This document shows positions 1-42,988 of a DNA stretch of 42,988 nt, one piece after another. Source of the DNA: a virus. Its lineage: Duplodnaviria; Heunggongvirae; Uroviricota; Caudoviricetes. Both the position numbers and the translations under genes were made by a program. The notes beneath the pieces are model-generated. The model was not told where the DNA came from. It did no database searches and saw only the letters and a list, made by a program, of their open reading frames with translations. The DNA lies in the IMG/VR virus record IMGVR_UViG_3300045988_149348. The stretch is one strand, 5' to 3'. How positions within the stretch are numbered: position 1 is the first letter of the stretch; each line of letters starts with the position of its first letter.

Positions 1-35
1 TTTACCGTTTCCTGTAAACCGAGGTATTCGATAAC
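1..35. repeat. gix/hix-like invertase crossover site (left copy); inverted-repeat partner of 42954..42988
   Basis: Bases 1-25 are the exact reverse complement of 42964-42988. Bases 10-35 (TTCCTGTAAACCGAGGTATTCGATAA) resemble the 26-bp Gin/Hin-family sites as recalled. The site lies inside the 3' part of the tail-fibre reading frame. Confidence 0.7.
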
Positions 36-1382
36 GGCGGCAACGGTCGATTTCGCAAGAATATCCCGCCCGACTTTTGTCAGAGTTGCCAGGCTGGCGA
101 CATCATTCCCCGTAAAATACGGAAACTTGTCTGCCGCAGTAGTAAGCCCGGCCAGCGCCGTCAGGGTGGCATCTTTCGGTTGCTTACCCGCAAGCGCGTT
201 AGTCATGGTGGTCGCAAAATTCGGGTCGTTTCCCAGCGCCGCCGCTAACTCGTTCAGCGTATTCAGTGCGTCAGGTGACGAATCTACAAGGGCGGCAATC
301 GCAGCCATAACATAAGCCGTGCTTGCGATCTGAGTATTGTTAGTACCTTTTGGCGCAGTTGGTGTTGTTGGTGTTCCGGTCAGCGCCGGACTGTTCAGGG
401 GCGCTTTCTTGTTCGTTTCATCCATTACCACCTTTACAGCTTTCGATGTCGCGGCCAGTGTTTCAGACGTGCTGTTGGTGGCACTACTGAGCTGAGTTAT
501 TCCCCTTACAGTCAGTGAAGCTACAGGCACATTTGTTATCTGATCCCACGAATGCGTGTGATTGGACGGAGCCTTTCCGGCCGCAAGATCATACGCTGCC
601 TTAACAGCCTTTGGTGTTGCTGCCAGCGTTTCAGACGTGCTGTTGGTGGCACTACTGAGCTGAACAATCCCTTTTCGCGCTGTGGTAGCGTCCTGTGCGG
701 TGTATTTAGCATTAGCCAGGTTATATGCTGCCTTAACAGCCTTAGGCGTCGCAGCAAACGTTTCAGACGCGCTATTGGTGGCGCTGCTAAGTTGAACAAA
801 GCCTTTTGAGGTTAAAGTTGCATCAGGATGATTACGTGATTGCTCATGTTTCACAATGGCTTGCTTAAGCCGCTTTGCTGAAACAGCAAGGGAATCATCT
901 GTACCTGCATCAATTTCTTGTTCATTAGCAAATCTTGCCACCCCAACAACAGTTTCGGTCGCGGGAGGATTAATAAACTCAATATCACCAAATGTAATAT
1001 TTTTAGTATCAAGAGTTTTAATTGCTATATCACTTGATATTAAAGCGATAGTAGATGATGCTTTATTTATTATTGCTTGTTCTTGTGAGTATACAGCAAA
1101 CAACGTACCCTTATTCGTATACAATCCTATTGTATGGACAACATACTCATCTTTACTATCATCCTTCGCTGTTACATGAATTGTATCAGGGGAAACAACT
1201 TTGCCACCTATTGTGGTAAGTCGTTTTATTTCGTTTGTTATATTTGTTTGTGAAGTTGACGTGACATAATATCTACTACCTAAACCAACAGAAACAATCT
1301 CAACTTTATTTGTTCCTGTTTTGTTGGCATTAACCAGCTCCTGACGCCCGGCGTCAGTCATCGTAAATAATAATTTACTCAC
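1..1382 (-). CDS. tail fibre protein, partial (3' end runs off window start); P2 gpH/Mu S-like N-terminus followed by tandem fibre repeats
   Basis: Hand translation of the minus strand gives an uninterrupted frame from GTG 1382 (AAGGA Shine-Dalgarno 7 nt upstream; alternative ATG 1361) to position 1. The N-terminus has a GLYTNKGTLFAV motif like P2 gpH; three copies of GIVQLSSATNSTSETLAATPKAVKAAY follow. Not in the ORF track because no stop lies within the window. Confidence 0.75.
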   Translation of the reverse strand, partial: MSKLLFTMTDAGRQELVNANKTGTNKVEIVSVGLGSRYYVTSTSQTNITNEIKRLTTIGGKVVSPDTIHVTAKDDSKDEYVVHTIGLYTNKGTLFAVYSQEQAIINKASSTIALISSDIAIKTLDTKNITFGDIEFINPPATETVVGVARFANEQEIDAGTDDSLAVSAKRLKQAIVKHEQSRNHPDATLTSKGFVQLSSATNSASETFAATPKAVKAAYNLANAKYTAQDATTARKGIVQLSSATNSTSETLAATPKAVKAAYDLAAGKAPSNHTHSWDQITNVPVASLTVRGITQLSSATNSTSETLAATSKAVKVVMDETNKKAPLNSPALTGTPTTPTAPKGTNNTQIASTAYVMAAIAALVDSSPDALNTLNELAAALGNDPNFATTMTNALAGKQPKDATLTALAGLTTAADKFPYFTGNDVASLATLTKVGRDILAKSTVAAVIEYLGLQETV

Positions 1383-1412
1383 GCTTAATTCCTTGAATAA
1401 ACAAATTGCGAA

Positions 1413-1994
1413 TTAGCACTCGCCAATTAATCGTATATAAGACACAGGCTGACAAGCACCAACAATACCGACACCACCAGAAACATCGGCAGCTTGCGAA
1501 AATGTAAATAATGTTCTTGCCGACTTTGCGCTCTTGATACTTCTTAACGTATCTTCCAGCATCTCTTTCGAAGGAACGGCACCATCAAAAGAGTTAATCG
1601 AAGCAACAATTGAGGCCGTATATGGTTCGCCAGGTGGTGATGTTTCAAACCATTCTGTTATGTTTACCTCTCCACCCAAGCTATTTACTACATCTTCAAC
1701 CGCTGCCCTTGTACCCTTTATTCGCTTTGTTCGTATTATTGATTTAAAAACAGAACGCTTTAACGATACAGGCCAACTATCCCTCCATGTATCAGCATTC
1801 CATTGCCAAGCTAAATGATCGAGAACAACTGAGTCCAGGTTATCAACAACGCTATATATTTCTGTCTTATATATTAAATTGTTAATTGCTTGTAGTTCAT
1901 CATCAATAGCTTTCGACATAGCTATCACGTTGGGATCTCTAGCTAAGTTAGGAGGTAAAACATCCAACAAGCTAACATTAAAGATATCAGCCAT
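1413..1994 (-). CDS. baseplate protein, P2 gpI / Mu gp48-like
   Basis: 193 aa; the LAWQWNADTWRDSWP...NITEWFETSPPGEP pattern matches the recalled gpI family signature; sits between the J-like gene and the fibre gene. Confidence 0.6.
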   Translation of the reverse strand: MADIFNVSLLDVLPPNLARDPNVIAMSKAIDDELQAINNLIYKTEIYSVVDNLDSVVLDHLAWQWNADTWRDSWPVSLKRSVFKSIIRTKRIKGTRAAVEDVVNSLGGEVNITEWFETSPPGEPYTASIVASINSFDGAVPSKEMLEDTLRSIKSAKSARTLFTFSQAADVSGGVGIVGACQPVSYIRLIGEC

Positions 1995-3111
1995 CCTCTA
2001 ACCCCGCATACTGGCAATTTATATTTCTCTCTCTGGCGACCTGCGTCTCTCCAACTACAGTAAATACAGGACTTGATATTTCTAATCTTTTAGCCCCGGC
2101 ATTTTTTAAACGTTGAATAATTTCATCTGGATTTATATCTCTTCCCATAACCGAACGTTGCCATTGTTTATACTCATCAAGAGCTTTCTCAACCTCACTT
2201 TGAATTAACGTTGTTCTGTTTTTGTCCGATGAGTTAATCCAGTATTTAATTATTATATCGTATTCAATGCTCTCTGGTTTCTTAACAAGAACTTTATCTG
2301 TGAATGGTCGAATATTAGTTGCAGAGAGAACGCTATTTATCTGCTCTAATAGTTCATCAGAAGGTATATCCCCGTTCTCTAACAAAGAACGGATTTCTAC
2401 AGTTCCGGGCGATGGTGTATATACATTCACATCTTTTATATTCTGATTGGCTGTTCTTGTCCAATATTTATAAGAATCCTCCGGCCCTGCTGTAGACAGT
2501 TTTTCCGGCGACAGTTTTATTCTTTCAGCATAATTATCATCTGACTCTGTATCAGCACCAGAATTAGATGTTGTTAGATTCCTTACGCTGGAAACATACG
2601 GCAACGGAGTCACCAACTCGTTTATTTGCCCAGGTAAAAATCCATTCCCCGATAAGCCAGGTATAACAGCATATCCTGAGACTGTACCAACTGTTTTCCC
2701 AGCTGGTATTTCCAACAAAACATCTGTTTGGAAAATAACACTATTTCCAGTTGAAATTTGAGTGCCAGCAGGTATTGTATATATCCCCGATAATTTTGTT
2801 GACAGATTAAACTCAAATGTAGTCAAGGCAGATTGAGCTTCCAGCCTAGGCGTATCCGTCAGATAGCCTATATGGTCGAGATATTCCCCCCCACCATATG
2901 TAAGAAGGTTTTGTTTTGCAGAAAAATCGATAGCTTTTCTTTGCTGTATAATAATCTCACACAATGACAAGATGAATAATCTACGTGGATCAGCAGGTGC
3001 TAATGTTTCACCTGTTATACTCTCAAAAGCCCTGATTGAACGAGTTGTTATATCAGTCGGGTTAGAATCTGCGAAAGTAATATCTGGCAAACCACCGCGC
3101 GGCAACGTCAT
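1987..3111 (-). CDS. baseplate J-like protein
   Basis: 374 aa, position between the W-like and I-like genes; overlapping start/stop typical of a baseplate operon. Confidence 0.55.
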   Translation of the reverse strand: MTLPRGGLPDITFADSNPTDITTRSIRAFESITGETLAPADPRRLFILSLCEIIIQQRKAIDFSAKQNLLTYGGGEYLDHIGYLTDTPRLEAQSALTTFEFNLSTKLSGIYTIPAGTQISTGNSVIFQTDVLLEIPAGKTVGTVSGYAVIPGLSGNGFLPGQINELVTPLPYVSSVRNLTTSNSGADTESDDNYAERIKLSPEKLSTAGPEDSYKYWTRTANQNIKDVNVYTPSPGTVEIRSLLENGDIPSDELLEQINSVLSATNIRPFTDKVLVKKPESIEYDIIIKYWINSSDKNRTTLIQSEVEKALDEYKQWQRSVMGRDINPDEIIQRLKNAGAKRLEISSPVFTVVGETQVARERNINCQYAGLEDG

Positions 3112-3428
3112 TCTCTAACTCCTATCACAAGTTTTGGCCTAATAAAACCATCAGAAACGTCCGTTCTTTCAAAAGTAACAGAATGGATAATCGCTCTAGG
3201 CTCAAACTCACTAATTTTTTGAATTATTTCTCGTGTTGCTGTAGCAATAAAAATTGGGCTGGGGCTATCAACAAGACTTGAATTAACTCCTAATTTTCTG
3301 GCATATGGTACAGTGCCAATCTGAGTATTAATAATAGTAGAGACATTTTGCAAAACTTCTTCTACAACTGTTTTGGGCGACCAATCAATCGAGTAAGAAG
3401 GTGATGATATGGTAAACGTATTATTCAT
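3108..3428 (-). CDS. baseplate wedge protein, GPW/gp25-like
   Basis: 106 aa, size and position as in P2 gpW / Mu gp46; coupled overlaps with both neighbours. Confidence 0.55.
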   Translation of the reverse strand: MNNTFTISSPSYSIDWSPKTVVEEVLQNVSTIINTQIGTVPYARKLGVNSSLVDSPSPIFIATATREIIQKISEFEPRAIIHSVTFERTDVSDGFIRPKLVIGVRE

Positions 3429-3892
3429 AATAATTTACCTAACGCACTTCTAGTTTTTGACTCTATATTGCCAGCAATATCAACTAATGCTTCTTTCAGA
3501 GAGGTCTGTCCGACTTCCTGTAATTTAATGCCGACGATAATCACTCGTGGATTCCCAGTTGGACCGAAATAAGTCCATGATTCCTCTATATCTGTAATTA
3601 TAAAATTACCAAAATACTGAATACCAATTACAACAGGATTTACTTCCTGAATTGATTGCATTGTCCTAAGTAATGAAAGCGCAGCCAATGGAACAATGCC
3701 AAGTGTTGTATCCAACCGCATATTAAAACTAACTTCATCCAGATCTGGACCTATATCCTCCAGAACAGGTTTAAGCCCAATAACATCATGGCGCGCTACA
3801 CGACGCTTTGACGTCCTTTTAAAATTGTTGAACGTATTCACCACTATTGATGAGGCAACAAAAGGCATTGTACCAAGCATACCCACAATCAT
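3425..3892 (-). CDS. tail/baseplate-associated protein, unassigned
   Basis: 155-aa ORF tightly coupled between the V-like and W-like baseplate genes. Confidence 0.4.
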   Translation of the reverse strand: MIVGMLGTMPFVASSIVVNTFNNFKRTSKRRVARHDVIGLKPVLEDIGPDLDEVSFNMRLDTTLGIVPLAALSLLRTMQSIQEVNPVVIGIQYFGNFIITDIEESWTYFGPTGNPRVIIVGIKLQEVGQTSLKEALVDIAGNIESKTRSALGKLL

Positions 3893-4509
3893 GCCTGAGC
3901 CTCCGTTGTCGGAGCGTATTCCCCCTGAGCTGTGTGATGGTGGCCTTTAGATTTAATCCCATCAACATCTATATCACCACCAACAACCTTAACATCCCCA
4001 GAAATTGTAGCTGCAACACCTCCAGCAGAAGATCCTTTCATTCCACCTTTGAAGGTTAGTAATCCTTCAACTGTAGCATTTCCGGTAATGATGGTTTCTG
4101 GAGCATCAATAGTTACGGTTCCTGTAGCCTTAACGGTTACATCTCCGACAGCATCAACAAGGAGTAAATTAGATTCTCTGTCTACCTCAATACGAGTTCC
4201 GTTATTAAATCTAATGACGCGTTTATTAACAGTATTAGATGGCGGCTTCTGTGTTTCATCATAAAAACTACCAAGAATAAAACCTTGTTGCGGCCCTGCG
4301 GGATGAAAGATACACAAAACTTGCTCACCAATATCTGGCATCCAGTAATCAGCATTCTTATCCGTATTTTTCACAATAACTGATAACTTTGCCGAAGTGA
4401 CGTTATCCTGATCATCGAAAGTAACTCTTGCTGTAACATCACCATCATCAATATCAGAAACAACGCCAACTCTTATAGTCTGACGTAATAATGTTTCTAA
4501 ATCATTCAT
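3889..4509 (-). CDS. baseplate assembly/spike protein V-like
   Basis: 206 aa; the WMPDIGEQVLCIFHPAGPQQGFILGSF motif matches the recalled Phage_base_V pattern. Confidence 0.65.
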   Translation of the reverse strand: MNDLETLLRQTIRVGVVSDIDDGDVTARVTFDDQDNVTSAKLSVIVKNTDKNADYWMPDIGEQVLCIFHPAGPQQGFILGSFYDETQKPPSNTVNKRVIRFNNGTRIEVDRESNLLLVDAVGDVTVKATGTVTIDAPETIITGNATVEGLLTFKGGMKGSSAGGVAATISGDVKVVGGDIDVDGIKSKGHHHTAQGEYAPTTEAQA

Positions 4510-4511
4510 AA

Positions 4512-5513
4512 TTAATACCCATTAATTACTCTTCGGACATCAATCGAGGTGGTATAACCACTAGCCCCAATTGAATGCACAGCTTTCGATATAAGATATT
4601 TTCCAGAAAATGAACCGAATCCGTCCAGATTTATAGTTACACCAGCTACCAATCTGGTGTCTCCAACCAATACTAAAGATCCTGTATTTTGATATCTATT
4701 TTTAAGCCGCAAAGCAGCCTTTGCCTTACGTTTTGCTTCATCTAAATTAGCTACCAGTTTTCTTATCTTAAGATTCGACCCTTCTTCTACGGATGGATCT
4801 ACCCAAGTATACGAAAGCGACTTTCTTTTTTTAGGTACGCGATATTTGCACGTGCAACTTTTATACAAATCTGTAGATTGTGTGCTAAAGCTATATCTGA
4901 TTATCTCATCAATACCTAACGTAAGCGTAGCGATAGGATCTTTTTGCTCAAACATCTCTTGAGCAAATATTATTAATTGGCTATCAGTGACCTTTAACGA
5001 CAACCCTTCATCCTGGCAAAGTCGATGGAGAAATTTTAAATCGCTTTCCTCCATTTGATCTTCACGCGCATAATATGGATTACTATCACCATCAATAAGA
5101 AACAACAGTTCAAGGTTAGCTAATTTAGCTATAGAGGTTGCTATATCTTTAAGAGTTGTTTTTTCCCATGCATTACTTTTTAAATCACGTCTAATGCCTG
5201 ATGAAACAGGAACAGAAACAGCAGTCACCTCAACAACAGAAGGTGGTCCAGAGCAAGTTATGCCATCTACCTGGAATTTCCCGCACTCAAGGACGATTTG
5301 ATTTATAGGCTTAAAGCTCAAATCAATAAAATCACCCTTTTTAGGTGTCCAGTCTCCAGACCATTTCCCATCATCATTTTTTAATATAATAGAAATATCA
5401 TCGACCTGACCATCTTCATTATCTGTATAAGACATTGACAAAACATCAGGTGACATATGAGCGGTAATATTTACATTCTGATATATAACATCAAAAAGCG
5501 TTTTACGTAACAC
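4512..5513 (-). CDS. tail protein D-like (late control D / baseplate hub)
   Basis: 333 aa directly downstream of the LysM-like X gene and tape measure; C-terminal G..YTTSIDV pattern as in the GPD family. Confidence 0.55.
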   Translation of the reverse strand: MLRKTLFDVIYQNVNITAHMSPDVLSMSYTDNEDGQVDDISIILKNDDGKWSGDWTPKKGDFIDLSFKPINQIVLECGKFQVDGITCSGPPSVVEVTAVSVPVSSGIRRDLKSNAWEKTTLKDIATSIAKLANLELLFLIDGDSNPYYAREDQMEESDLKFLHRLCQDEGLSLKVTDSQLIIFAQEMFEQKDPIATLTLGIDEIIRYSFSTQSTDLYKSCTCKYRVPKKRKSLSYTWVDPSVEEGSNLKIRKLVANLDEAKRKAKAALRLKNRYQNTGSLVLVGDTRLVAGVTINLDGFGSFSGKYLISKAVHSIGASGYTTSIDVRRVINGY

Positions 5514-5721
5514 TATTGCGTCTCCACGGAGGCAAATTGTTTACTGATATTGGCATAACCGGAGCATCAGGAACTTTAAGAATAATTCCCGCAGAAAAAA
5601 GCACCGTAAAGCGGTGCTCCGTATTAGCATCAATAAGAAGATAAGACAGGTACTCATTACCGTACAACTTTAACGCGATACTATCCCATGAGTCCCCTTG
5701 AACCGTTCTATAATCATCCAA
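5503..5721 (-). CDS. LysM-like tail protein X
   Basis: 72 aa; the TVQGDSWDSIALKLYG...ILKVPD pattern is LysM-like, as in P2 gpX. Confidence 0.55.
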   Translation of the reverse strand: MDDYRTVQGDSWDSIALKLYGNEYLSYLLIDANTEHRFTVLFSAGIILKVPDAPVMPISVNNLPPWRRNSVT

Positions 5722-8506
5722 AACTTAATCTCCGTTGTTGGAACATATGAGCACTCAATTTCTTCTCAAAATCAGAATATCCCGCATCTAATGCTCTTTT
5801 AGCTGCCGCCTCAGTTTCCTTTGGTGAACCAGCCGGAAGATTGATTACAGGTGAATAGGTTATTCCACCAGTCACAGCATTAACGTTCTGGCGAGGTCCA
5901 GAAGTCCCGGCGGCAGATATCCCGTGAGGTGATAAATTTGATTGCCCGAACTTGGTTGCTATTGCATTCTGTAAGCTGTTATTCCTGCTAACGCCTGATG
6001 CCAGAGTAGTCATTATTGCACCACCTGACTTTGTTAGCTGTGAGAATGGACCTTTTTTCGCGTCAGAGAACGGTAAATACTCACGTACAGAAGAAAAAAC
6101 GCCTTTCACTTCATTAATTAAAGCATTTGCTTTTGATTTTATCCCAGTGATTAACGTCTCAATTATTTTTGCGCCTGACTCACTCCAGTTTATTCCAGAC
6201 AAATAAGCCGTTACAGATTGGAATGCTCTTATAAAGAGTCCAACTGGTGAAAAACGCATAAAAAAAGATACCAGTGTATCTATGATTTTCTTTCCTGTTT
6301 CGCTCCAGTTAATACCAGAAAGGTAATTTGTTGTAAGTTTAAATGCTTTAATTAAGAACGGAAGCGGAGACATCCATTTAAAAGCACTAATTAATGTACT
6401 GTAAATTCTTACTCCTGCCGAACTCCAGTTTATGTTGGAAAGATAATCCCATGCTTTACCAAACATAGATATAATCCATCCATTGAGATCAAAGTTTAAG
6501 ATAAAGTTTTTTATAGCTTCAAACGATTTAACTGTATATTCCTTAACAGAAGGCCAAACTCTGACAGCATAATCTCTGATCTTATCCCAGTTCTGATAGA
6601 GCAATATTCCTGCGGCAACCAGCGCAGATATAGCCATCTGAATCCACCCGAAGGGTGTTAGCTTTGTCGCTACAGATAAAGCCAGCATAGCTACCCTACA
6701 CGCTATAACCACACTTTTCATGGTTAGAAACGCACCTGCCGCCATCACAATCTGAGACACAAAATTGGGGTTGTTAGCTACAAATTCACTAATTTTTGTA
6801 ATCAGAGGAACCAAAACACTAAGCGCGGCATTCAAAGCAGGTTGCAAGGCCTGACCAAAACTTAATGATGCATTGCTAGCCTGAATACGTAATTGTTTCA
6901 ATCGCTCCGCATTGTCTTTCGTTATGTTGGCAAAATCGCGGTCAATAACAGCACTTCCAGCACCAAGAGATGTTGCTTTGATTCTCTGGTATTCCTTCCA
7001 GTTTTGAATCATCGGACGAACAAAGTTCTGAACCTGCATATCGCCAAATAGCTCACCAAGTAACTTCTGATCTCCGTTCTTAGTCATTTTCATGACAGAA
7101 TGCATTGCAGCTTCGAATGGATTCTTCCCTTTTTTCTGCGCTGTTGTGACAATTTTATATAAATCTACACCGAAATTTTTCTTTGCTTTTTTTAGTGTTT
7201 CAGGGGAAAGTATTTTCGCCAAAAAGTTGTTCATATTATTAGCAGCCTCATCCGAAGTTGCAGCACCTTTGCGAGCTATCTGCAAAGCTGCCCCCATCGT
7301 CGCGGCGGCTTCTTTACCTCCCATTTTTAATGCCTGGAACTGGGCACCAAGCACAGGAAGATTTTTGGCCATATCTTTAAATTCAAAGTTTCCCTCTTTC
7401 CCTGCCTGAACCAGAATCCCCATTGCAGACTTCATTTGAGATGGATCAATCTTCAATGAGTCACTTAATGTAAATGATGCTTTCGAGACATCGAGGATAT
7501 CAGAGCCAGTAGCTGTAGCTGTTCGCCCAATAGTTAGTAGATTCGCCTGAGCCTCTTTATAATCCTGCCCAGCAGCGACGAGAAAACCCTGAGCAGCCTG
7601 AATATCAGATGCAAACTGGTTGGTAGCCGTTCCGGTAACAAGCATCGCCTGCCCCATCGCCTGAACTTCTTCCGGCTTCATATCTGCCGTAAGACCAATC
7701 ATTTTGTTTTCACGATTGAAATTTGCTGCATTGTTAGCAGCAGCAAATGCACCAGCCGCTACAGCACCAGTTTGTAATCCTGACCTTACAAGTTGACTCT
7801 TTGCCTCACCAAGATGCTCTCGCTTCAATTCACGCTGCCTTTCCAGAGCGCGGTTTAACTCCTCCTGAGCACGTTTTACTGCAAGAACATTTTTCCGTGC
7901 ATCAGCCAACGCATTTTTATAGCTGTTAATTTTATCAATACGTTGTTTTTCTAATGCCCGGTTAAGTTCCTCCTGCTGTTTTTTCACTTGCTGAACATTT
8001 GCTCTGGCTAAAGCCAAAGCCGTTCTGTAGCGGTTAACCTGCTCAACGCTACGGACCTGAGCCTCACGATTACGATCAATGCTGGCTTTAAGCTCTTTCT
8101 CTCTTGAGGCCAAAGCTCTGGCAGATGTATCAGCTCCCTGATAGGCAGACTTTAAAGCGGCCAGTTCTTCACGCTGAGAACGTAGTGATGCTCGTAAATT
8201 CGATGAATGTGTTTTTGCCTTCTCAAAGTCACGAAGCATCGCTCTGGTTGGATTGGCCGTGTTTTTTATTTGCTTCTGTAACTCTTCAACGCGAGCGGCA
8301 GCTTTATGATATTCGAGGGCAGTCTGTCCAACCTTTACTTTTACAGATTGTAGCTTTTGAATTTCCCCATGTTCTTTCGTTAATCCAGCAAGCTCGGCAT
8401 TTAATTTAGCAACAGCCTGATTAGCTGTAGTAAAACTTTTGGGGAGAGAGGCGGCAACTTTGCCACCAATTTCAAAAGCCAGCTTAAAGTTCTTATTGCT
8501 GGCCAT
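5714..8506 (-). CDS. tail tape measure protein
   Basis: 930 aa; coiled-coil N-terminal half with repeated QEELNRALE(K/R)QR units, hydrophobic central segment, three tandem ~35-aa YLSGINWSE.G.KII repeats; located between the chaperone genes and baseplate genes. Confidence 0.85.
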   Translation of the reverse strand: MASNKNFKLAFEIGGKVAASLPKSFTTANQAVAKLNAELAGLTKEHGEIQKLQSVKVKVGQTALEYHKAAARVEELQKQIKNTANPTRAMLRDFEKAKTHSSNLRASLRSQREELAALKSAYQGADTSARALASREKELKASIDRNREAQVRSVEQVNRYRTALALARANVQQVKKQQEELNRALEKQRIDKINSYKNALADARKNVLAVKRAQEELNRALERQRELKREHLGEAKSQLVRSGLQTGAVAAGAFAAANNAANFNRENKMIGLTADMKPEEVQAMGQAMLVTGTATNQFASDIQAAQGFLVAAGQDYKEAQANLLTIGRTATATGSDILDVSKASFTLSDSLKIDPSQMKSAMGILVQAGKEGNFEFKDMAKNLPVLGAQFQALKMGGKEAAATMGAALQIARKGAATSDEAANNMNNFLAKILSPETLKKAKKNFGVDLYKIVTTAQKKGKNPFEAAMHSVMKMTKNGDQKLLGELFGDMQVQNFVRPMIQNWKEYQRIKATSLGAGSAVIDRDFANITKDNAERLKQLRIQASNASLSFGQALQPALNAALSVLVPLITKISEFVANNPNFVSQIVMAAGAFLTMKSVVIACRVAMLALSVATKLTPFGWIQMAISALVAAGILLYQNWDKIRDYAVRVWPSVKEYTVKSFEAIKNFILNFDLNGWIISMFGKAWDYLSNINWSSAGVRIYSTLISAFKWMSPLPFLIKAFKLTTNYLSGINWSETGKKIIDTLVSFFMRFSPVGLFIRAFQSVTAYLSGINWSESGAKIIETLITGIKSKANALINEVKGVFSSVREYLPFSDAKKGPFSQLTKSGGAIMTTLASGVSRNNSLQNAIATKFGQSNLSPHGISAAGTSGPRQNVNAVTGGITYSPVINLPAGSPKETEAAAKRALDAGYSDFEKKLSAHMFQQRRLSFG

Positions 8507-8511
8507 TAGTA

Positions 8512-8694
8512 TTAATCCTCATTAAACACATCAATCCATGCGACGATTCGCCTCAACCGAAGCGAAAGCCAGTAGGATATAGGTGTTGATTGAGATGATT
8601 GAGATAGAGAACTCGCGGCCCTCATTATTTGCTTATCAATAGGTTTTTGCTCATCAAAACCTACGAGAGCAAAAAATTCTGTACCTTTTGACAA
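8512..8694 (-). CDS. tail assembly chaperone frameshift extension (E'/GT-like)
   Basis: -1 frame ORF overlapping the end of 8661..8942; the slippery heptamer T_TTT_TTG (minus strand, 8666..8660) would join the two frames. Confidence 0.45.
   Translation of the reverse strand: MSKGTEFFALVGFDEQKPIDKQIMRAASSLSQSSQSTPISYWLSLRLRRIVAWIDVFNED
8660..8666 (-). other. candidate programmed -1 ribosomal frameshift site (U UUU UUG)
   Basis: Heptamer in the zero frame of the chaperone gene, just before its stop; shifted reading continues as FFALVGFDEQKP, the 8512..8694 frame. Confidence 0.4.
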
Positions 8695-34475: not shown

Positions 34476-34598
34476 CTACTTGCTGCTAATGTTTATCGTC
34501 ACATTCAGAGCGTTATCAGTAATCTTCCAACCCTCCCCATGTGGCGTAAACAAAGCTCCAGTAACAACGATAAAAATACACATGTAGTATTTTTTCAT
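34476..34598 (-). CDS. small hydrophobic peptide (40 aa), candidate membrane peptide
   Basis: MKKYYMCIFIVVTGALF...; AAGGG 8 nt upstream of ATG 34598; own terminator downstream. Low confidence. Confidence 0.3.
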   Translation of the reverse strand: MKKYYMCIFIVVTGALFTPHGEGWKITDNALNVTINISSK

Positions 34599-34976
34599 TG
34601 TGTGGCCCTTACAGGCCGTTTCACGGCATCCCCACCGACGAAAATGACGCGAGAGCAAGCACGCTGTTTGTGCCTGCGTGGTACGGCAAGTGGATAATCC
34701 TTTCCTGAAAGTCGGTGCCCGGTTGCGAATCGGCGAAAAGGCCCCGCGTAATGTTACACCGCAGCCCCTTCATAATGAAGGGATAAAAATGTATTGTTTT
34801 TCATTAGGTTAAATACACACCACAAAAATCACTCGCTTTTGTGCTCTAATAAACCAAATTTATTTGGACAATTTTATTCAGTTGGGTAAGAATATGGTTG
34901 CTGTTTGTGCTTGCGTGGTTGTATTTATACAACAACGTAATGCTGAAAGGACCGCGAATCCGATCAGCACGAAAGA

Positions 34977-35002
34977 ACCGTCCTCAAAAGGACGGTTTTT
35001 TT
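34977..35002 (+). terminator. rho-independent terminator (plus strand)
   Basis: ACCGTCC-TCAAAA-GGACGGT followed by TTTTTT; overlaps the 3' end of the minus-strand gene 34984..35556. Confidence 0.6.
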
Positions 35003-35556
35003 GTTTCTCCCCCTTCCTTCCCAAATGATTCAAATGTTAATGAGAGTGAATCATTTGATATGTTCGATTTAGCGCCGTTATCGACCCAATTTCTGTATGC
35101 TTCATCACAACAGTACCTTACAGCAGTTGGAGTAACAGGGATGCCGCCCCCAAATGAGAATCCCATTGAGCTAATGCTAACTCTTTCGAATGGCCTATTT
35201 CTCAATGCTTCAAACCCCTTGCTATTAAAGTAACGCAGCATCAGAGGTAAAAGGTTATCCTCGTCCTGACTGATTGTTCCAGGGAAAAAGTAGTAACCAT
35301 AACGGTTAAATTCGGGAATAAGAATTTCTACCAATGACATGAAATTCACTGGAGTAATATTAAGGGCTGTGAAAGCACCAAAAAGGGCGTCAACTGTTAA
35401 TACAGACTGCCCGTTCTCTATCTTTGTCCATGCGTTTGGTGTTTTTCCAGCAGCTTGAGCCAGCACTCCTTGATGCACACCTCTTTCTAGCCTAAGTTCT
35501 TTTATGATCATTAGGTGAATTGTTGAAAAACATGAGTTTTTTGACTGTTCAATCAT
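34984..35556 (-). CDS. HTH_XRE-family DNA-binding protein with uncharacterised C-terminal domain
   Basis: 190 aa; helix-turn-helix VLAQAAGKTPNAWTKIENGQSVLTVD; GGGGA ribosome-binding site 6 nt upstream of ATG 35556. Confidence 0.55.
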   Translation of the reverse strand: MIEQSKNSCFSTIHLMIIKELRLERGVHQGVLAQAAGKTPNAWTKIENGQSVLTVDALFGAFTALNITPVNFMSLVEILIPEFNRYGYYFFPGTISQDEDNLLPLMLRYFNSKGFEALRNRPFERVSISSMGFSFGGGIPVTPTAVRYCCDEAYRNWVDNGAKSNISNDSLSLTFESFGKEGGETKKPSF

Positions 35557-35692
35557 TTTTTATCCCCATACTGAATTTTTTCTTGTTCCCGACTTTAACA
35601 AAACCCCACAACTCAGGACTGATTGATTCCTTACAGGAACTATACATTCCCATTTTTAGCATATCAAGAAAATTAAAAGCCCCGCATTCAAA

Positions 35693-35707
35693 CCCACACT
35701 ATGTGGT
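35693..35707. promoter_or_regulatory. operator, ACCAC-N5-GTGGT family (CCCACACTATGTGGT, one mismatch)
   Basis: Immediately upstream of an extended -10-like TGTTAAAAT (35711..35719) that precedes the candidate small-RNA region. Confidence 0.5.
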
Positions 35708-35737
35708 TTAGTCTGTTAAAATCCCTCTGTATTGACA

Positions 35738-35839
35738 TAAATGCGCCATTGGTGGACACTTTCCGAGCCGTAGCAAAATCTACGGTCGGGATTGGAACCC
35801 CGTAGACACAATGGCGCATACCGCGTTAGCGGTTTTTTT
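35738..35839 (+). ncRNA. candidate c4-like antisense regulatory RNA with intrinsic terminator
   Basis: Structured ~100-nt region: GCGCCATTG...CAATGGCGC long-range stem, CCGTAG/CTACGG inner stem, then ACCGC-GTTA-GCGGT plus UUUUUUU terminator (35820..35839). 35789..35817 is complementary in two blocks (CATTGTGTC, GTTCCAA) to 35917..35941 in the downstream leader. Confidence 0.5.
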
Positions 35840-36005
35840 ATGCGTAAAGCACTGCTACACCCAAATTATGGTGGGGCGTGCGGGGGAGTCGTAAGACTCG
35901 CCGGTTCGTCATTGTGTCCGGTAGTTCCAACCCTGCACGTCTCACCACCCAATGATTGGAACCTGACGGTGGTGAGTATCCTTAACCTTTAAGGGAATCA
36001 TCACA

Positions 36006-36197
36006 ATGACAAACCTACCCCATGACTATTACGTCAACCTCGTAAAGATCCTTCTCAAGAAAGCCTCATACGCCGATAAAGTCCGCCTGGCTGAAATCAT
36101 CGAGCGCGAAGCTATGCGCATCGCCAGCAACGATAACGCTGTTTCTGACGCAAAAATCTCCCTCGTAACCAAAGTAGTTATGGGAGGTGCAAAATGA
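36006..36197 (+). CDS. icd-like small ORF, translationally coupled to the antirepressor gene
   Basis: 63-aa ORF whose TGA stop overlaps the ATG of the next gene (ATGA); AAGGG ribosome-binding site lies in a CCTTAA/TTAAGG hairpin. Confidence 0.5.
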   Translation: MTNLPHDYYVNLVKILLKKASYADKVRLAEIIEREAMRIASNDNAVSDAKISLVTKVVMGGAK

Positions 36198-37375
36198 AAA
36201 CGCTTCCGATCGTTAACACCCTACAGCCTATCCTGCATAACCAGATCCCCGTTATCACTACTGAACTACTGGCAAAGCTATACGGCACAGACGTTGATAA
36301 CATCAAAAAAAATTACTCACGTAACGCAACCCGCTTTATTGAAGGAAAGCATTTTTTCAAAGTGGCTGGCGATGAGTTAAAAACTTTGCGAGTGACTTTA
36401 AGTCACTCACAAAATTTGCGACTAGTTTTAAACGAGTCACAAAATGAAGTGCAAATTTCCCCCAAGACTCGCTCTCTCATCCTCTGGACAGAACGCGGGG
36501 CTGCACGTCATGCCAAAATGCTTGAAACTAACCAAGCGTGGGATGTATTCGAACGGCTGGAAGACTGCTATTTCAGCCAGAACGCGCAAACGGCCGCGAC
36601 CGTAACCGTCTCGCCAAACAATGCTCGTGAGGTTGTCGATACGCTCAACGCCAAACCGATGTTTTACATTAAAGTGTGCAACAACGAGCCACTCACAACC
36701 TCAGCCGATGTTGCCCAGGCATTCAGCACCACAAACAATTCCATCGTTATGGCCATCGATGCGCTACGCATTCCTCGCACGGCTGCGGCGCGTCACTTCT
36801 TTAAAGAGCAACGACCGTTGGAAGGAAGCGACCGCGAAATAACAATCTATCGCATGACAAAAGACGGATTTACCTTGCTCATGGAGAGCATCGACGGTCC
36901 AGGCGTGAAAGATATCAAGCTGGCCTACATTGAAGCCTTTAACGCTATCAGCAGCGTGTTAAAAACACAGTACGAGCGTGATCTGGCTAAACGACTGTAC
37001 CAGGAAAAAACGATTATCCGCGCGGCAACAGAGCATAATCGGCTATTAACGGAACCGAACTACAGGAAGGAACTAATCAAGGAGTTTGACAAGGCAACAG
37101 GGAAAACCAAAGCGGCGCTAAATCTGCCAGCAATGACTCAGGAAAATGTGATATCAGCCTTACTTCTTGATCTGCTCAGAAACGCCAGAGCACTTATCAG
37201 CTTTGACGAAAACCTGAATCCTCAGCTCAAGCTACTACCACCGACAGGCAAAGTAGTCGACCAGGCTGATCACAACAGCATACTCAGCGTACTGGATGCA
37301 AACCTGCCAGCCAGGACACTACAGGATCTGATAAAAACATGTGCTGATAAGCTGGCACAGAAAAGCAGACCATAA
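36194..37375 (+). CDS. antirepressor-like protein (ORF6N/KilA-N-like N-domain + Rha-like domain)
   Basis: 393 aa; N-terminal ITTELLAKLYGTDVDNIKKNYSRNATRF (ORF6N-like) and central PLTTSADVAQAFSTTNNSIVMAIDAL (Rha-like), as recalled; GGGAGG ribosome-binding site. Confidence 0.6.
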   Translation: MKTLPIVNTLQPILHNQIPVITTELLAKLYGTDVDNIKKNYSRNATRFIEGKHFFKVAGDELKTLRVTLSHSQNLRLVLNESQNEVQISPKTRSLILWTERGAARHAKMLETNQAWDVFERLEDCYFSQNAQTAATVTVSPNNAREVVDTLNAKPMFYIKVCNNEPLTTSADVAQAFSTTNNSIVMAIDALRIPRTAAARHFFKEQRPLEGSDREITIYRMTKDGFTLLMESIDGPGVKDIKLAYIEAFNAISSVLKTQYERDLAKRLYQEKTIIRAATEHNRLLTEPNYRKELIKEFDKATGKTKAALNLPAMTQENVISALLLDLLRNARALISFDENLNPQLKLLPPTGKVVDQADHNSILSVLDANLPARTLQDLIKTCADKLAQKSRP

Positions 37376-37399: not shown

Positions 37400-38112
37400 T
37401 CTTTTCTCTCTTATCAACGCCAGAGACTTTCTGAAAATCCTTTCGAATAGCGTCAGCATCACGCGCCAAGCCCATACTGGAATGCGTCGCCATATGACGA
37501 AAATGATCAACTGCCGGAAACAAAGAAATAATGGACCCAATAGCTTGCAGCAAACTCGCTTTTCTACGCATCATAATTCCACCATAACCGATAACCACCC
37601 TTCAGACACAACCCCCCCTCCCCCCATACAGGGTGCCCTTTACCGGAGTTCCGGCCCCTTCTCAAAAGCATCAAAAAAAGCTCGAGATCGAGTACCGGAA
37701 CTCATGCCACCAGATAGCTCCACATCGTTTCCAATGCTTCGCCGCCGTGTGCGCCCTGTGGCCCACAATCATGCCATTGGTCGTCTGATATACCTTCTTC
37801 TGCTCATAGAGCACAGGCGAGTTGTCGCACTCCTGCCTTTCTCAGACTCGACTTAGTTTAGATCGCTGTTCCTGGCTTGCGTCAGCACACTTTCCCCTTG
37901 TACGCATACCCGCGCGCCACTTCGCCCAAAAACACCGAACCCAACGAAGTGGCAAAGACAACGACGCGAGCGTGAGTCTGAAATGGGCACCAGTAAAAAA
38001 GGGGTTGCAGGCGCAAAAAGATTTGATTATCTTTAGACGCAAGAAAGCCGCCCCAATCAAGAGGTGTCTTTTTAAATCCAGCCTACCAAGCAAGATTTAA
38101 ATTTCAGACTGA

Positions 38113-38137
38113 AAACCGCCCGGCAAGGCGGTTTTTG
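38113..38137. terminator. bidirectional rho-independent terminator
   Basis: ACCGCC-CGGCAA-GGCGGT hairpin flanked by AAAA on one side and TTTTT on the other; downstream of the minus-strand operon 38901..38185. Confidence 0.6.
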
Positions 38138-38184
38138 TCTTTCTGGCGCTTACATTACACCACCATAAAACGATCCGTAAAGGA

Positions 38185-38520: not shown

Positions 38521-38901
38521 TTACTTAACGAGGAATAAAAATGGTTTATTGTTCGGCGGTGTAATCGGGGCTGGCTCGCTTTTGCTCATGCGGTCAGTGT
38601 ACCAGGCCAGCTCCTTGTCAAAGTAAGCCTGATTAAAATAGGCCATGAATGTGGTTTCAAATCCATAACGACCGCTAATACGCAGCATCTGATTGCCGTT
38701 CTCTGTTTCCAGATATACCAGGGCACGCTCCTGATTCTCCTTCAGCCAGGTTAAAGCCTCATCGCACGAGGACACACGATACTCATCATCGTAGCCGTCA
38801 TCGATGCGGCTTGAAGAAGAACGGCAAATCACGCCAACAGAACCAGCCAGGATAGTTTGAATTTTAAGGAAAGCGTTTTTGCGGATTTTAATCATGCTCA
38901 T
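38521..38901 (-). CDS. hypothetical protein driven by copy B of the duplicated leader
   Basis: 126-aa ORF; 5' region identical to that of 28245..29312 up to the ribosome-binding site. Confidence 0.45.
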   Translation of the reverse strand: MSMIKIRKNAFLKIQTILAGSVGVICRSSSSRIDDGYDDEYRVSSCDEALTWLKENQERALVYLETENGNQMLRISGRYGFETTFMAYFNQAYFDKELAWYTDRMSKSEPAPITPPNNKPFLFLVK

Positions 38902-38908
38902 CGGGTTA

Positions 38909-39021
38909 TCTCCGGTTTAACCAGGGCGGGTATCGCTCGGTTTCGGGTATAACCATAGGAAATTTTTTCCCACCTGTAAAGAACCTTTTTATATAAATCT
39001 ATAATTATATAACTCTATGAG
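38909..39021 (-). promoter_or_regulatory. duplicated ~100-bp promoter/leader module, copy B
   Basis: Near-identical to 29319..29420, including the TATAAATCTATAATTATATA 20-mer. Confidence 0.55.
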
Positions 39022-39065
39022 CACAAAAAAGCCCCTTTGCAACAGGGGCTTATCATTCGTTCTGA

Positions 39066-39365
39066 TCAGATGTTAAACGCTATTCGTTTTCCTGTGGGAA
39101 GCTCAACATCCAGGCTTAATTTGCCTCCCATAGCTTCAACGTAACGCTTTAATGTCGCCAGCTTTAAATCATTTCCGCGCTGCTCCAGCTTTGTTACTGC
39201 TGGCTGGCTTATACCCATCGCCTCAGCAACCTGTTTTTGTGATAACTGGAGTTCTTCACGCATCATCTGCAAGCCGACCTCAAGAATCATCTCATCTGCC
39301 ATTTCTTTAATTCGCGCCTGGCTTTCAGGTGAACGGCTGGCAATCACCTCATCTAATGTTCTCAT
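39066..39365 (-). CDS. HigA-like antitoxin (HTH_XRE)
   Basis: 99 aa; helix-turn-helix LSQKQVAEAMGISQPAVTKLEQ; start overlaps the stop of the upstream toxin-like gene. Confidence 0.6.
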   Translation of the reverse strand: MRTLDEVIASRSPESQARIKEMADEMILEVGLQMMREELQLSQKQVAEAMGISQPAVTKLEQRGNDLKLATLKRYVEAMGGKLSLDVELPTGKRIAFNI

Positions 39366-39718
39366 TACTTGCTCTCCAGTGTGTTCAGATGTGCTGCAAA
39401 CTCATCCTCAGCTATACGCACCAGTTTTTTATAAAACCGCTTATCGTTACTTTTGTCTCCTGCACAAAGAACGATAGCCCGGCGAATCGGATCGAACGCA
39501 TAAAAGGCTCTTATCGGACGGCCAGAAAACTGAACGCGAAGCTCTTTCATATTTTTGTACCGAGAACCTTTTACGGTATCGGCATATGGCCTGGGTAACT
39601 CAGGTCCGTAAACCTGTAGATTTTTCAAATCAGCCAAAACCTTTTCCTGAAGAGCGTCTTCTTGCTCATTTAGCCAGTCGTCAAATCGCTGGCTAAAAAG
39701 TACCGTCCACATGATCAA
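39365..39718 (-). CDS. HigB/RelE-family (Gp49-like) addiction-module toxin
   Basis: 117 aa; W.V.F...F..WL...GS....MKELR...YRA.Y......IVL..G.K pattern as recalled for the killer-protein family; toxin-first order. Confidence 0.6.
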   Translation of the reverse strand: MIMWTVLFSQRFDDWLNEQEDALQEKVLADLKNLQVYGPELPRPYADTVKGSRYKNMKELRVQFSGRPIRAFYAFDPIRRAIVLCAGDKSNDKRFYKKLVRIAEDEFAAHLNTLESK

Positions 39719-40895: not shown

Positions 40896-41174
40896 GGGCG
40901 AACATATTCACAGGCAAAGCCTGCGTAAGTTAAATAAAGAAAGTCTTAATAAAAGAAAGTGATTTTGCATTTATTTGTTTAGTGCATCTATTATAAAAAA
41001 CCATTTGCATATATATATCAAAACTGTGGATAACTTTATTAGCCGATGCCTGTAAAGGCGATATTTTTGCTGTGTTCAGGTTTAGAGAAAATTAATTTAG
41101 ATTGTTTTTTGAACAGATGTTTTATTGCGACGTAGATAATCCTCCGGTAAAACCGGATTCATCATTCAGGTGGG
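40896..41174. other. candidate replication origin region downstream of repA
   Basis: AT-rich non-coding stretch with a perfect DnaA box (TTATCCACA on minus strand, 41025..41033); position relative to repA as in IncFII oriR. Confidence 0.45.
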
Positions 41175-42023
41175 TTAATGTTGGAGTGATTTCCAGGTCT
41201 TTCTTAACCTGTTATAACGCTGCTCAACGAGGGATCGTAAATATGCAAGGTCAGCACCTGGATACATGCCATCAGCAAATTCCTGACTAACCTCTCTAGT
41301 GATTTGATGACGAAGTTCGGCCTCTCCCTTTTCCTGAACAAGACGCGCAGCTCTCTCCGCTGCTTTCTGTTTTGCCTTTATCTCTCTGGCCGTCTTCCTC
41401 TGACGCCATACATTCTCCATCTGCTCCTGAATAACAATACGCTTATAATCAGCCTCCGTTATCGCTTTTTTAAGCCGTTCGCTATTCTTCGCATTGAAGT
41501 AATTAAGTTTCTGGCTAACCGCACGTCTCCATGCTTGTTCAGTAATACCAACGGTTTCCAGCAGTTGATCACGAATCTCTATTTTCGCTGGCCAATACTG
41601 TTTATTCACCCGATCCCAGCGACGTTCATAATCAATAAAACCTAACGCTTTCAGTTGCGACAACGCCCTTGTACAGCGCGTTATAGACTTGTTCCCAGCT
41701 TCGGATACGGTAGACAGGCCGCAAAAATCAGCCAACGCCTCAGCACTAGCCAGAACCCGCTTAGAAATGATGTTTACATGGTGCAAAATCGCAGCGATCA
41801 CAGCATTAATCGCCCGACGACGATGCTCGTTTATCCGGCGCTTCCGCTCTGACGGTTGATTAACGTAGAACGCAACCTCACACGTAAGATCACGCCCATT
41901 AATGCGCTGTAAAGCATCAGATAACACCAGCGGCAGCTTGTGCGTATGGTGCTTTGGAGGCTGGAACTCCGGCGACAAATTACAAACGTAAGCTGAACGT
42001 AGAGACGGCATTGGTCTATCCAT
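41175..42023 (-). CDS. repA: plasmid replication initiator RepA, IncFII RepA1-like
   Basis: 283 aa from ATG 42023; CGLSTVSEAGNKSITRCTRALSQLKALGFIDYERRWD matches the RepA1 core motif as recalled. The ORF track's longer form (to 42185) starts at a TTG. Confidence 0.75.
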   Translation of the reverse strand: MDRPMPSLRSAYVCNLSPEFQPPKHHTHKLPLVLSDALQRINGRDLTCEVAFYVNQPSERKRRINEHRRRAINAVIAAILHHVNIISKRVLASAEALADFCGLSTVSEAGNKSITRCTRALSQLKALGFIDYERRWDRVNKQYWPAKIEIRDQLLETVGITEQAWRRAVSQKLNYFNAKNSERLKKAITEADYKRIVIQEQMENVWRQRKTAREIKAKQKAAERAARLVQEKGEAELRHQITREVSQEFADGMYPGADLAYLRSLVEQRYNRLRKTWKSLQH

Positions 42024-42067
42024 ATGTTCGCTCTTGCGTCCACGGAAAACCAACGTATAATGGGAGT

Positions 42068-42148
42068 TGTCGATGCGCCCATGGATATTGTTGTTGGTTT
42101 TCCGTGGATGTCGCAAGAAGCCCGCAGATTTATCTGCGGGCTTTTTGT
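42068..42148 (+). ncRNA. candidate CopA-like antisense RNA (countertranscript to the repA leader)
   Basis: Plus-strand promoter TTGCGT-16-TATAAT (-10 at 42056..42061); stem-loop CCAUGGA/UCCGUGG; terminator GCCCGCAGA-TTTA-TCTGCGGGC plus TTTTT (42120..42146); lies 45-125 nt upstream of repA on the opposite strand. Confidence 0.55.
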
Positions 42149-42190
42149 TTCCATATCTGGTCACTTTCCAACCAGACACCCACAATCATA

Positions 42191-42205
42191 ACCACGTTAC
42201 GTGGT
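42191..42205. promoter_or_regulatory. operator, ACCAC-N5-GTGGT family (ACCACGTTACGTGGT), upstream of repA
   Basis: Perfect 15-bp inverted repeat in the spacer of a putative minus-strand promoter with -10 TATGAT. Confidence 0.55.
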
Positions 42206-42335
42206 TTTAAGAGAACTCTACCACAACACTTTCGGTCATGCACGAAGTCTCTCACTGATCGAACGATAATCCACCAGTAAAAGGATCTAAATTGGATCTC
42301 GTTTTGCGAGCATCATACTACTGGCCTAACTCCAG

Positions 42336-42890
42336 TCAATGATTCCCAGCCGGAAACCTGCGGTAAAGCGTGGATAAGGTAACATCGAAGATAATCGCTA
42401 TCCGCTTACGTGAAACACCATTCGCAATAAGCCTTCCGATCTGTTCCCATTGCTCTGGTGCCAATTTTGAGCGGCGTCCTCCTATCCTGCCGTTAGCCCT
42501 TGCCACCGCCAATCCTGCACGCGTTCTTTCAATCATATTTTCCCGCTCCATCTCTGCGACTGCACTCAGCATCGTGTAGGCAAAGCGGCCAATTGAAGTG
42601 CTAATTTTTATCCCTTCCGTAATCGAAATAAACTCAATGTTGTTTGATAAAAAATAGTTAAGTAAATCAACAAGATGAATCAGAGAACGCCCCATTCGGT
42701 CCAGCTTCCAGACAATAACCGTATCGCCCGGCCGTAACACCTTCAGTAGCTTATCAAGTCCTGGTCGTTTTGATTTAGCACCGGATATTTTATCTTCAAA
42801 AATCCGGTCACATCCTGAACTCCTGAGCGCTTCCAGTTGTAATTCCAAATTCTGGTCAAAAGTTGACACCCTCGCATAACCATATTGCAT
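42336..42890 (-). CDS. serine recombinase, Gin/Hin/Cin-family DNA invertase
   Basis: 184 aa; YARVSTFDQNLELQ catalytic-serine motif, VWKLDRMGRS, C-terminal GRIGGRR...LSTLYRRFPA helix-turn-helix; closely parallels Gin as recalled; gix-like site about 65 bp upstream. Confidence 0.8.
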   Translation of the reverse strand: MQYGYARVSTFDQNLELQLEALRSSGCDRIFEDKISGAKSKRPGLDKLLKVLRPGDTVIVWKLDRMGRSLIHLVDLLNYFLSNNIEFISITEGIKISTSIGRFAYTMLSAVAEMERENMIERTRAGLAVARANGRIGGRRSKLAPEQWEQIGRLIANGVSRKRIAIIFDVTLSTLYRRFPAGNH

Positions 42891-42953
42891 ACTTTCTAAA
42901 CCGCGATTGTTGCTAAAAGCGGAAAAAAATATCGTTCAGACGACACAGAGGCA

Positions 42954-42988
42954 ATTCGCAAAAACCTCGGTTTACAGGAAACGGTAAA
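42954..42988. repeat. gix/hix-like invertase crossover site (right copy); inverted-repeat partner of 1..35
   Basis: Reverse complement of 42954..42979 is TTCCTGTAAACCGAGGTTTTTGCGAA; 25-bp perfect inverted repeat with window positions 1..25. Confidence 0.7.

Follow-up and report, generated by a model that had tools for sequence, protein, structure and literature searches.

The phage-plasmid lifestyle has been defined as a class (PMC7969092, PMC12977533), and the element described here fits that definition. It is represented by the window, by which we mean the whole 42,988-nucleotide stretch of DNA that was analysed (IMG/VR record IMGVR_UViG_3300045988_149348, Caudoviricetes), and it is very probably a phage-plasmid, namely a temperate myovirus that persists in lysogeny as a low-copy, non-integrating circular plasmid of ~46 kb. 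The curated types are P1, N15, SSU5/pHCM2/pSLy3/pKpn/pMT1, AB and cp32, and by sequence the window is a member of none of them. With P1 the element shares the lack of an integrase and lysogeny as a plasmid (for the window, as read from its relatives), repressor operators dispersed over the genome, a serine-invertase switch of the tail fibre, partition and addiction modules, and a homologue of the Ref nuclease. It differs from P1 in size (~46 kb versus 94 kb) and in its virion genes, which are unrelated and combine a lambda-type head with a P2-type tail. Packaging probably relies on a cos-type GpA terminase, versus the headful packaging of P1; RepA belongs to the IncFII/L-M type and is accompanied by an antisense candidate, versus the iteron-controlled RepA of P1; and no counterpart of the separate lytic replicon of P1 (repL) was found in the window. 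The ParA of the window is, unlike that of P1, of the small type and has no ParB-type partner, and DNA similarity to P1 is limited to ~1.4 kb.

Unlike the circular element considered here, N15 is linear, and the SSU5-supergroup types are roughly 100 kb in size. pSLy3 and the other SSU5-supergroup types are siphoviruses (PMC7969092). Membership in the pSLy3 group was considered and rejected, as that group belongs to the SSU5 supergroup and no SSU5-type record occurs among the best matches listed for the window.

A phage-plasmid had been proposed from the letters of the window without database searches (the original prediction), and most of that proposal holds. Its claims of a full virion and lysis gene set, a lambda-like head and P2-like tail, Gin-type fibre inversion, a HigBA pair, a repressor regulon, an early operon devoid of phage replication genes and the absence of an integrase are all borne out by the results given below. 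The whole-genome comparison with known groups that it recommended placed the window outside P1, N15, the SSU5 supergroup and every other named type, and found close plasmid and phage records instead. The combination of modules had also been called unusual. This we cannot uphold, as the combination is frequent in databases; the plasmid-prophage lifestyle class is already well established, and the element turns up often in public collections of E. coli plasmids and phages.

These relatives are of two kinds, circular plasmids and deposited phages. In megablast searches of phage records, made with the window in two halves, Yersinia phages vB_YpM_39, 41 and 44 are 98–99% identical over most of the window; their records are circular, 49 kb long, and name Y. 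pestis EV76 in the host field. Two partial E. coli phage records (vB_EcoM-613R2 and 473R2) also match by megablast. The structural half is 98–99.5% identical over 100% of its length to dozens of circular, non-mobilizable Escherichia plasmids of 46–52 kb, and the 48,488-bp plasmid of E. coli ATCC 25922 is among the 98–99% matches to the window. A 10-kb head and tail probe found a match in 72 of 5,426 complete E. coli genomes, and 86 of the 87 places involved are on plasmids. The prevalence of the lineage is therefore ~1.3% of complete E. coli genomes, reference strain ATCC 25922 included. Its host spread extends beyond E. coli to Salmonella, Klebsiella aerogenes and probably Citrobacter: a relative in Salmonella Weltevreden is a syntenic circular plasmid of 47,244 bp (L004), 74% identical in the repA region, and protein-level relatives lie on ~46-kb contigs of Klebsiella aerogenes, Enterobacter and Citrobacter. 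Among phage records the large terminase is at least 99% identical in only five, 60–80% identical in eight and below 60% in the rest, so the lineage is poorly represented among deposited phages.

The two ends of the window carry the following features:

1–25, left gix-like crossover site, inside the tail-fibre gene and in inverted repeat with 42964–42988
3–1361, minus strand, tail fibre, constant N-terminal part (Pfam Phage_fiber_2, 1.7e-56; 43826–45186 in L001)
42336–42890, minus strand, Gin-type serine DNA invertase (Pfam Resolvase and HTH_7)
42964–42988, right gix-like crossover site, an inverted copy of 1–25

The first 25 bases are the reverse complement of the last 25 (TTTACCGTTTCCTGTAAACCGAGGT), forming a terminal inverted repeat. 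Its core, TTCCTGTAAACCGAGG, which we take to resemble the gix sites of phage Mu, also flanks the invertible segment in plasmid NZ_AP025749.1 (L001). The window is collinear with this plasmid, on which only 45187–48213 (~3.0 kb) separates the two ends; the interval holds a fibre C-terminus, two opposed fibre-assembly genes and an alternative fibre C-terminus. The fibre C-terminus of the window is likewise encoded in the invertible segment, beyond the window. Crossover sites at both ends, together with the bridging fibre segment in the relatives, indicate that the contig was broken at the inverted repeats and does not run out into chromosomal flanks. The window is ~43 of the roughly 46 kb of a closed circle, and just the ~3-kb fibre segment is absent.

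The fibre segment lies one way in L001 and L002 and the other way in L003 and L006, and the presence of both orientations among near-identical plasmids means that it inverts in nature. The invertase, whose best solved match is DNA-invertase 3UJ3 (1.6e-61, aligned over the full length), would swap the alternative fibre C-termini and so alter host range. As in the G segment of Mu with Gin, and in P1 Cin and Salmonella Hin, there is a serine invertase, and inverted crossover sites lie in the fibre gene and beside the invertase gene; the relatives carry the alternative fibre C-termini, with one assembly gene for each. The difference from Mu is that the invertible segment itself falls outside the window.

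An integrated prophage, with an integrase and att sites just past the window ends, might be suspected from a linear, unclosed window and from the one related E. coli place in 87 that is chromosomal. Both ends, however, are one invertase crossover site in inverted orientation, the other 86 places are on plasmids, and a 3-kb fibre segment that carries no integrase connects the ends in all complete relatives that were read. Chromosomal flanks with an integrase past the ends had been named in advance as the finding that would overturn the phage-plasmid proposal, and the fibre segment is what lies there. No integrase was found in the window, where the serine invertase is the sole recombinase, or in the RefSeq annotation of three whole relatives. 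The integrated-prophage reading is thus largely refuted, and we regard it as very improbable.

The phage-plasmid reading also calls for virion, packaging and lysis genes, and three modules carry them:

1413–11243, minus strand, P2-type contractile tail and baseplate (I, J, W-like, V, D, X, tape measure, assembly chaperone, tube and sheath)
11244–19221, minus strand, lambda-type head and packaging module (by Pfam and the annotation of L001 and L005)
23584–25066, minus strand, lysis cassette of two holin-family proteins, a GH108 endolysin and a small protein of 92 amino acids (aa)

The virion, packaging and lysis genes form a complete set of full-length open reading frames (ORFs), and the structural, packaging and lysis ORFs compared by coordinates have the same lengths as in the deposited phages. 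Tail genes match Pfam Tail_P2_I, Baseplate_J, GPW_gp25, Phage_base_V, Phage_GPD, Phage_tail_X, PhageMin_Tail and Phage_tube (FII); the sheath gene is named solely via the annotation of relatives. The head module encodes a candidate small terminase, a GpA-type large terminase, TerL (Pfam GpA_ATPase, 1e-76; GpA_nuclease, 1e-84), a DUF6148 protein, a portal of the lambda family (Phage_portal_2, 7e-101), a ClpP-type protease (CLP_protease), a decoration-like protein, capsid protein E (Phage_cap_E, 2e-55) and head-tail adaptors. In the lysis cassette the matches are to Phage_holin_8, Phage_holin_3_7, Glyco_hydro_108 and PG_binding_3, the last a peptidoglycan-binding domain on the endolysin. All deposited phage genomes begin at window position 20216, which may mark a cos region.

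A cryptic phage-like plasmid, making no infectious particles and kept by RepA, ParA and toxin-antitoxin systems alone, would fit the outcome of a literature search, which found no publication with virions for the lineage. It would also fit the absence from the window, at junction 23202/23203, of a 3.2-kb block found in some relatives (L001 18783–21999: an MT-A70 methyltransferase and small ORFs), and the insertion sequence insertions or truncations that some relatives carry. Set against this are the intact reading frames just described, the deposition of near-identical genomes as phages (with Y. pestis EV76 as host, and also as E. coli phages), the 98–99% conservation of the structural genes across hosts, and the two orientations of the fibre segment, from which the host-range switch appears active. 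We consider a cryptic plasmid improbable.

As a plasmid, the element would depend on a replicon situated next to the invertase gene:

40930–41170, minus strand, candidate plasmid origin, assigned by position
41175–42023, minus strand, repA, an initiator of the IncFII/L-M superfamily (conserved start probably 42011)
42036–42150, plus strand, candidate antisense copy-control RNA, opposite the repA leader

RepA matches Pfam IncFII_repA (6e-44) and NCBIfam RepA_IncFII_LM (232 bits; cut-off 70) and fails the strict equivalog model incFII_RepA (TIGR03474; 78.9 bits versus a cut-off of 446.9). Having passed the broad model and failed the strict one, it can be called IncFII-type, as in the original prediction, at the superfamily level only. 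In a translated search RepA is at least 86% identical only within a group of 62 plasmids, and the next plasmid RepAs are at most 37% identical. The replicon is confined to those 62 plasmid records, which are all non-mobilizable; the records listed (40 of the 62) are all phage-sized. Intermediate RepA relatives that could serve for covariation were found neither in genome contigs nor in viral contigs, the latter yielding only copies 86–100% identical.

The likeness to the IncFII (R1/R100) and IncL/M replicons goes beyond the shared RepA families. The transcript opposite the repA leader is a structured antisense candidate whose predicted fold (−68.6 kcal/mol, z = −9.9) has two parts, a long hairpin and then a terminator hairpin with its U run. 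IncFII-type origins lie downstream of repA, and there, ~145 bp past the gene, the window has its only perfect DnaA box (TTATCCACA, 41025–41033), with an AT-rich stretch after it; the number of DnaA boxes alone is not significant, and the origin is called by position. Differences from these replicons are the failure of the strict model, the identity of at most 37% outside the element's own group, the want of an Rfam CopA match and the absence from the repA region of a CopB-like ORF, whose place is occupied by a phage-type operator. Nor does any short ORF terminate at the repA start as a tap-like leader peptide would. A 10-codon ORF, MTESVVVEFS (42207–42239, minus strand; MESVMIEFF in the Salmonella relative), stops exactly at that operator, and three GATC sites lie just upstream of it (42230–42305).

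The operator in the repA leader is one of a dispersed set associated with the lysogenic repressor:

25453–31832, minus strand, early operon, divergent from the repressor gene
31850, 31871 and 31953 (31850–31969), three operators between the repressor gene and the early operon
32006–32662, plus strand, CI-like repressor of 218 aa (HTH_3; PHROG 4 'transcriptional repressor' over the full length, 1e-26)
32704–32720, perfect operator between the repressor gene and orf124/parA (L004 counterpart at 34525)
35692–35708, operator between the divergent promoters of a gene for a 190-aa helix-turn-helix (HTH) protein and of the immunity-RNA operon
42190–42206, perfect operator AACCACGTTACGTGGTT in the repA leader, between a promoter-like site and the antisense target

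The motif AACCAC-N5-GTGGTT has eight matches with two or fewer mismatches, versus 1.4 expected, and none of 100 shuffles reaches eight; six of the eight are in regulatory intergenic regions. In the Salmonella plasmid the half-sites are kept at the early-operon, post-repressor and repA-leader positions, with different spacers, and the repA-leader operator (at 27462 there) lies within a region 74% identical to the window. A conserved promoter-like site, TTGACT-16-TATGAT (42339–42312), is located ~100 bp upstream of the repA-leader operator. We infer that the CI-like protein is the ligand of these operators and that it limits repA transcription in lysogeny. Its C-terminal domain, in a gene divergent from the early operon, is weakly S24-like (Pfam, below the cut-off). 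An autocleaving S24 repressor was considered and set aside: the Pfam match is below the cut-off, solved structures match the HTH domain alone, and the catalytic serine motif, judged by eye, may be replaced.

The early operon encodes a Ref nuclease, DUF1064 and DUF3560 proteins and a small MarR-like protein, the rest being unassigned and all at most 355 aa. No helicase, primase, polymerase or initiator is recognisable in it by Pfam, PHROGs or NCBIfam, with the sole exception that the C-terminal part of the DUF3560 protein matches a PHROG labelled 'primase'; relatives of this protein are often fused to ArdC_N and are named antirestriction proteins. With no recognisable replication genes in the early operon, derepressed repA probably serves lytic replication; that an operator is conserved in the repA leader suggests that the plasmid replicon is released from repression on induction. 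In lysogeny, then, the CI-like repressor would occupy operators at four places: the early promoter, the stretch behind its own gene, the immunity-RNA operon and the repA leader. RepA would be kept low by the operator in its leader together with the structured antisense RNA.

These operators also bear on whether the window could be a chimera or assembly artefact, in which a prophage was inserted in, or mis-joined with, an unrelated small plasmid. Its gene content is mosaic, with short patches that resemble P1, Stx phages and P2-like fibre genes, as a chimera might have. Yet the operators tie the phage to the plasmid modules, the replicon is found nowhere outside this phage-sized element, and more than 60 closed plasmids, sequenced independently of one another, share the gene order, as does the Salmonella relative at 74% identity. 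An artefact of this kind is very improbable.

Returning to the phage-plasmid, its switch out of lysogeny would be set by an operon that resembles immI of P1:

34984–35556, minus strand, 190-aa HTH protein (Pfam HTH_3/HTH_31), divergent from the immunity-RNA operon
35692–37375, plus strand, P1 immI-like antisense immunity operon, with the operator first and the antirepressor last
35733, −35 hexamer TTGACA of the immunity-operon promoter
35767–35839, plus strand, IsrK-like leader with a1/b1 targets and an intrinsic terminator (Rfam isrK, 67.7 bits)
35864–35952, plus strand, C4 antisense RNA (RF01695, 77.8 bits with gathering score 45, E 1e-13)
36006–36197, plus strand, 63-aa ORF whose stop overlaps the antirepressor start as ATGA
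36194–37375, plus strand, antirepressor (Pfam ORF6N and Phage_pRha (Rha); several PHROG anti-repressor families)

Two segments of the C4 RNA, GTCATTGTGTC and GTTCCAA, are complementary to upstream sites at 35792–35798 and 35805–35813 (a1/b1), and the same segments are complementary to downstream sites a2 (35956–35962) and b2 (36002–36010), the latter covering the ATG (36006) of the 63-aa ORF. Against the c4-a1b1 model the match reaches 38.8 bits and stays under the gathering score of 46.7. As in P1 immI, where a C4 antisense RNA is processed out of the transcript that it regulates and blocks a small ORF coupled to the antirepressor, the C4 RNA would pair at two places on the transcript that contains it, one of them the start of the 63-aa ORF, and so hold off the coupled antirepressor. 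If the C4 block failed, the antirepressor would be made and would inactivate CI, the early, late and lysis genes would be expressed, and the derepressed repA replicon would probably also supply lytic replication.

Gifsy-1 IsrK/AnrP of Salmonella offers a second parallel, having an IsrK-family RNA and terminator just upstream of the antirepressor gene and on the same transcript. The window differs from it in that the IsrK-like leader overlaps the a1/b1 decoys and a full C4 RNA comes after it, which makes the module look like a P1/Gifsy hybrid. The divergent 190-aa HTH gene has a promoter-like site of its own at 35667–35639. Downstream of the operon, 37575–38180 comprises ~600 bp that hold no convincing ORF and carry no annotation in relatives; base composition is atypically skewed there, with an AT skew of 0.18 across 36–38 kb.

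Plasmid maintenance is represented by a partition module and by two toxin-antitoxin loci, one of them a candidate:

33147–34225, plus strand, partition module consisting of TATA-box arrays, parA and an 82-aa gene
33280–33933, plus strand, parA, a small Walker-type ATPase of 217–222 aa (Pfam CbiA/ParA, NCBIfam ParA_partition)
33977–34225, plus strand, 82-aa gene, candidate centromere-binding protein by its position after parA
34448–35003, both strands, candidate type I toxin-antitoxin pair (Rfam ryfA; repeat family D8)
39066–39712, minus strand, higBA, toxin first (HigB 39365–39712, HigA 39066–39365)

TATA boxes with 8-bp spacing (TATA-N4-TATA-N4-TATA) flank parA on both sides (33153–33253 and 33934–33961), and such arrays give 11 hits in the window versus none expected. 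A small Walker-type ParA and short boxes in arrays beside the par genes are both features of ParF/ParG-type (type Ib) partition. The AlphaFold model of the 82-aa protein (pLDDT 65) has a disordered N-terminal stretch of 40 residues followed by two helices, and as a model it is compatible with a ribbon-helix-helix fold. The arrays point to more than one centromere or to a genome-wide regulon under the small partition protein. By analogy with Omega of pSM19035, which is a global regulator, a TATA-box network at six or seven promoters would make the partition protein one as well. A single replicon serving both lifestyles, in which loss of the repressor leads to runaway replication, combined with a partition protein acting as a global regulator through the TATA-box network, is a tentative proposal that we think somewhat more apt to fail than to hold. 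Repressor control of repA, if confirmed, would provide a compact model of one replicon switching between copy-controlled and lytic replication.

Further TATA-box arrays occur directly upstream of unrelated genes (23430–23457, 28182–28211, 29401–29420 and 38992–39011), and the arrays hold the same relative positions in the Salmonella plasmid L004. A cassette of ~115 bp, made up of a box array, a conserved 5' leader and a ribosome-binding site, is present twice, at 29300–29426 before the DUF3560 gene and at 38898–39024 before a 126-aa gene; relatives carry a third copy before a gene adjoining the MT-A70 methyltransferase.

HigB matches Pfam Gp49 (7e-23) and HigA matches HTH_3 and HTH_37. In the candidate type I locus, a ryfA/timP-like RNA on the minus strand (34448–34746; Rfam ryfA, 136.6 bits) encodes a 40-aa hydrophobic peptide, MKKYYMCIFIVVTGALFTPHGEGWKITDNALNVTINISSK, and a divergent small-RNA candidate on the plus strand (34900–35003), with a promoter at 34865–34893 and a terminator, is complementary to the ryfA RNA at 19 of 20 positions. 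The locus looks like a timP/timR-like type I pair, a second addiction module that is absent from the original prediction. ParA and the 82-aa protein would segregate the plasmid copies, and HigBA, probably with the timP/timR-like pair, would kill plasmid-free cells.

Several results weigh against the phage-plasmid reading or against its parts. The window itself is unclosed, so that the plasmid state of this isolate is taken from relatives, and one of the 87 related E. coli places is, as noted, chromosomal. The phage status of the lineage comes solely from GenBank records: the literature search found no paper reporting virions or a plasmid state for the window lineage, and none that treats vB_YpM_39/41/44, vB_EcoM-613R2 or the ATCC 25922 plasmid as a phage-plasmid. 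For the candidate antisense RNA, Rfam gave no CopA (RF00042) match, whether at the gathering threshold or with E ≤ 1, and the search for a consensus promoter was negative; of the RepA/CopA pair named in the original prediction, RepA stands and CopA is reduced to a structured candidate. The 82-aa protein has no match in Pfam (E ≤ 10), in a PDB sequence search or by Foldseek against PDB, so from the ParA/ParG claim ParA is retained by homology and ParG by position only. The same is true of the c4/icd/ant claim, in which C4 (Rfam) and ant (ORF6N, Rha) are supported and icd is positional, the 63-aa ORF showing no Pfam family, only an unnamed PHROG, and no homology to Icd. As for the regulon, there is no good −35 hexamer at the repA-leader operator, and no LexA box lies near the immunity genes, the one match in the window being inside a head gene and at chance level.

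The lineage appears to be unnamed in the phage-plasmid papers covered, and a relative from Salmonella Enteritidis has been described as a 'mosaic prophage/genomic island' (PMC13552960, 2026). Lying outside the named types, and with draft assemblies that break at the invertible segment, such elements are easily mislabelled. Once the element is recognised as a phage-plasmid, its spread is to be read as infection and not as conjugation, and the reading of its stability and gene cargo changes as well.

The remaining features lie between the lysis and packaging genes and beside the lysis cassette:

19212–23092, minus strand, ParB/Srx-like proteins (196 and 207 aa), a ParB_N-methyltransferase fusion (459 aa) and a 239-aa protein
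23218–23290, minus strand, tRNA with anticodon CAT

The former block sits between the lysis and packaging genes, on the upstream side of the latter, and matches Pfam ParB_N and Methyltransf_23. The tRNA is assigned to Met by ARAGORN and to Ile by PGAP in relative L006. Regions 25.4–27.5 kb and 34.7–36.5 kb of the window are mosaic between relatives. Contig L011, an IMG/VR viral contig of 68,543 bp, carries a repA of the window type and exceeds the size of the element; for this contig and for the single chromosomal place among the 87, integration, a cointegrate or a concatemer is possible.

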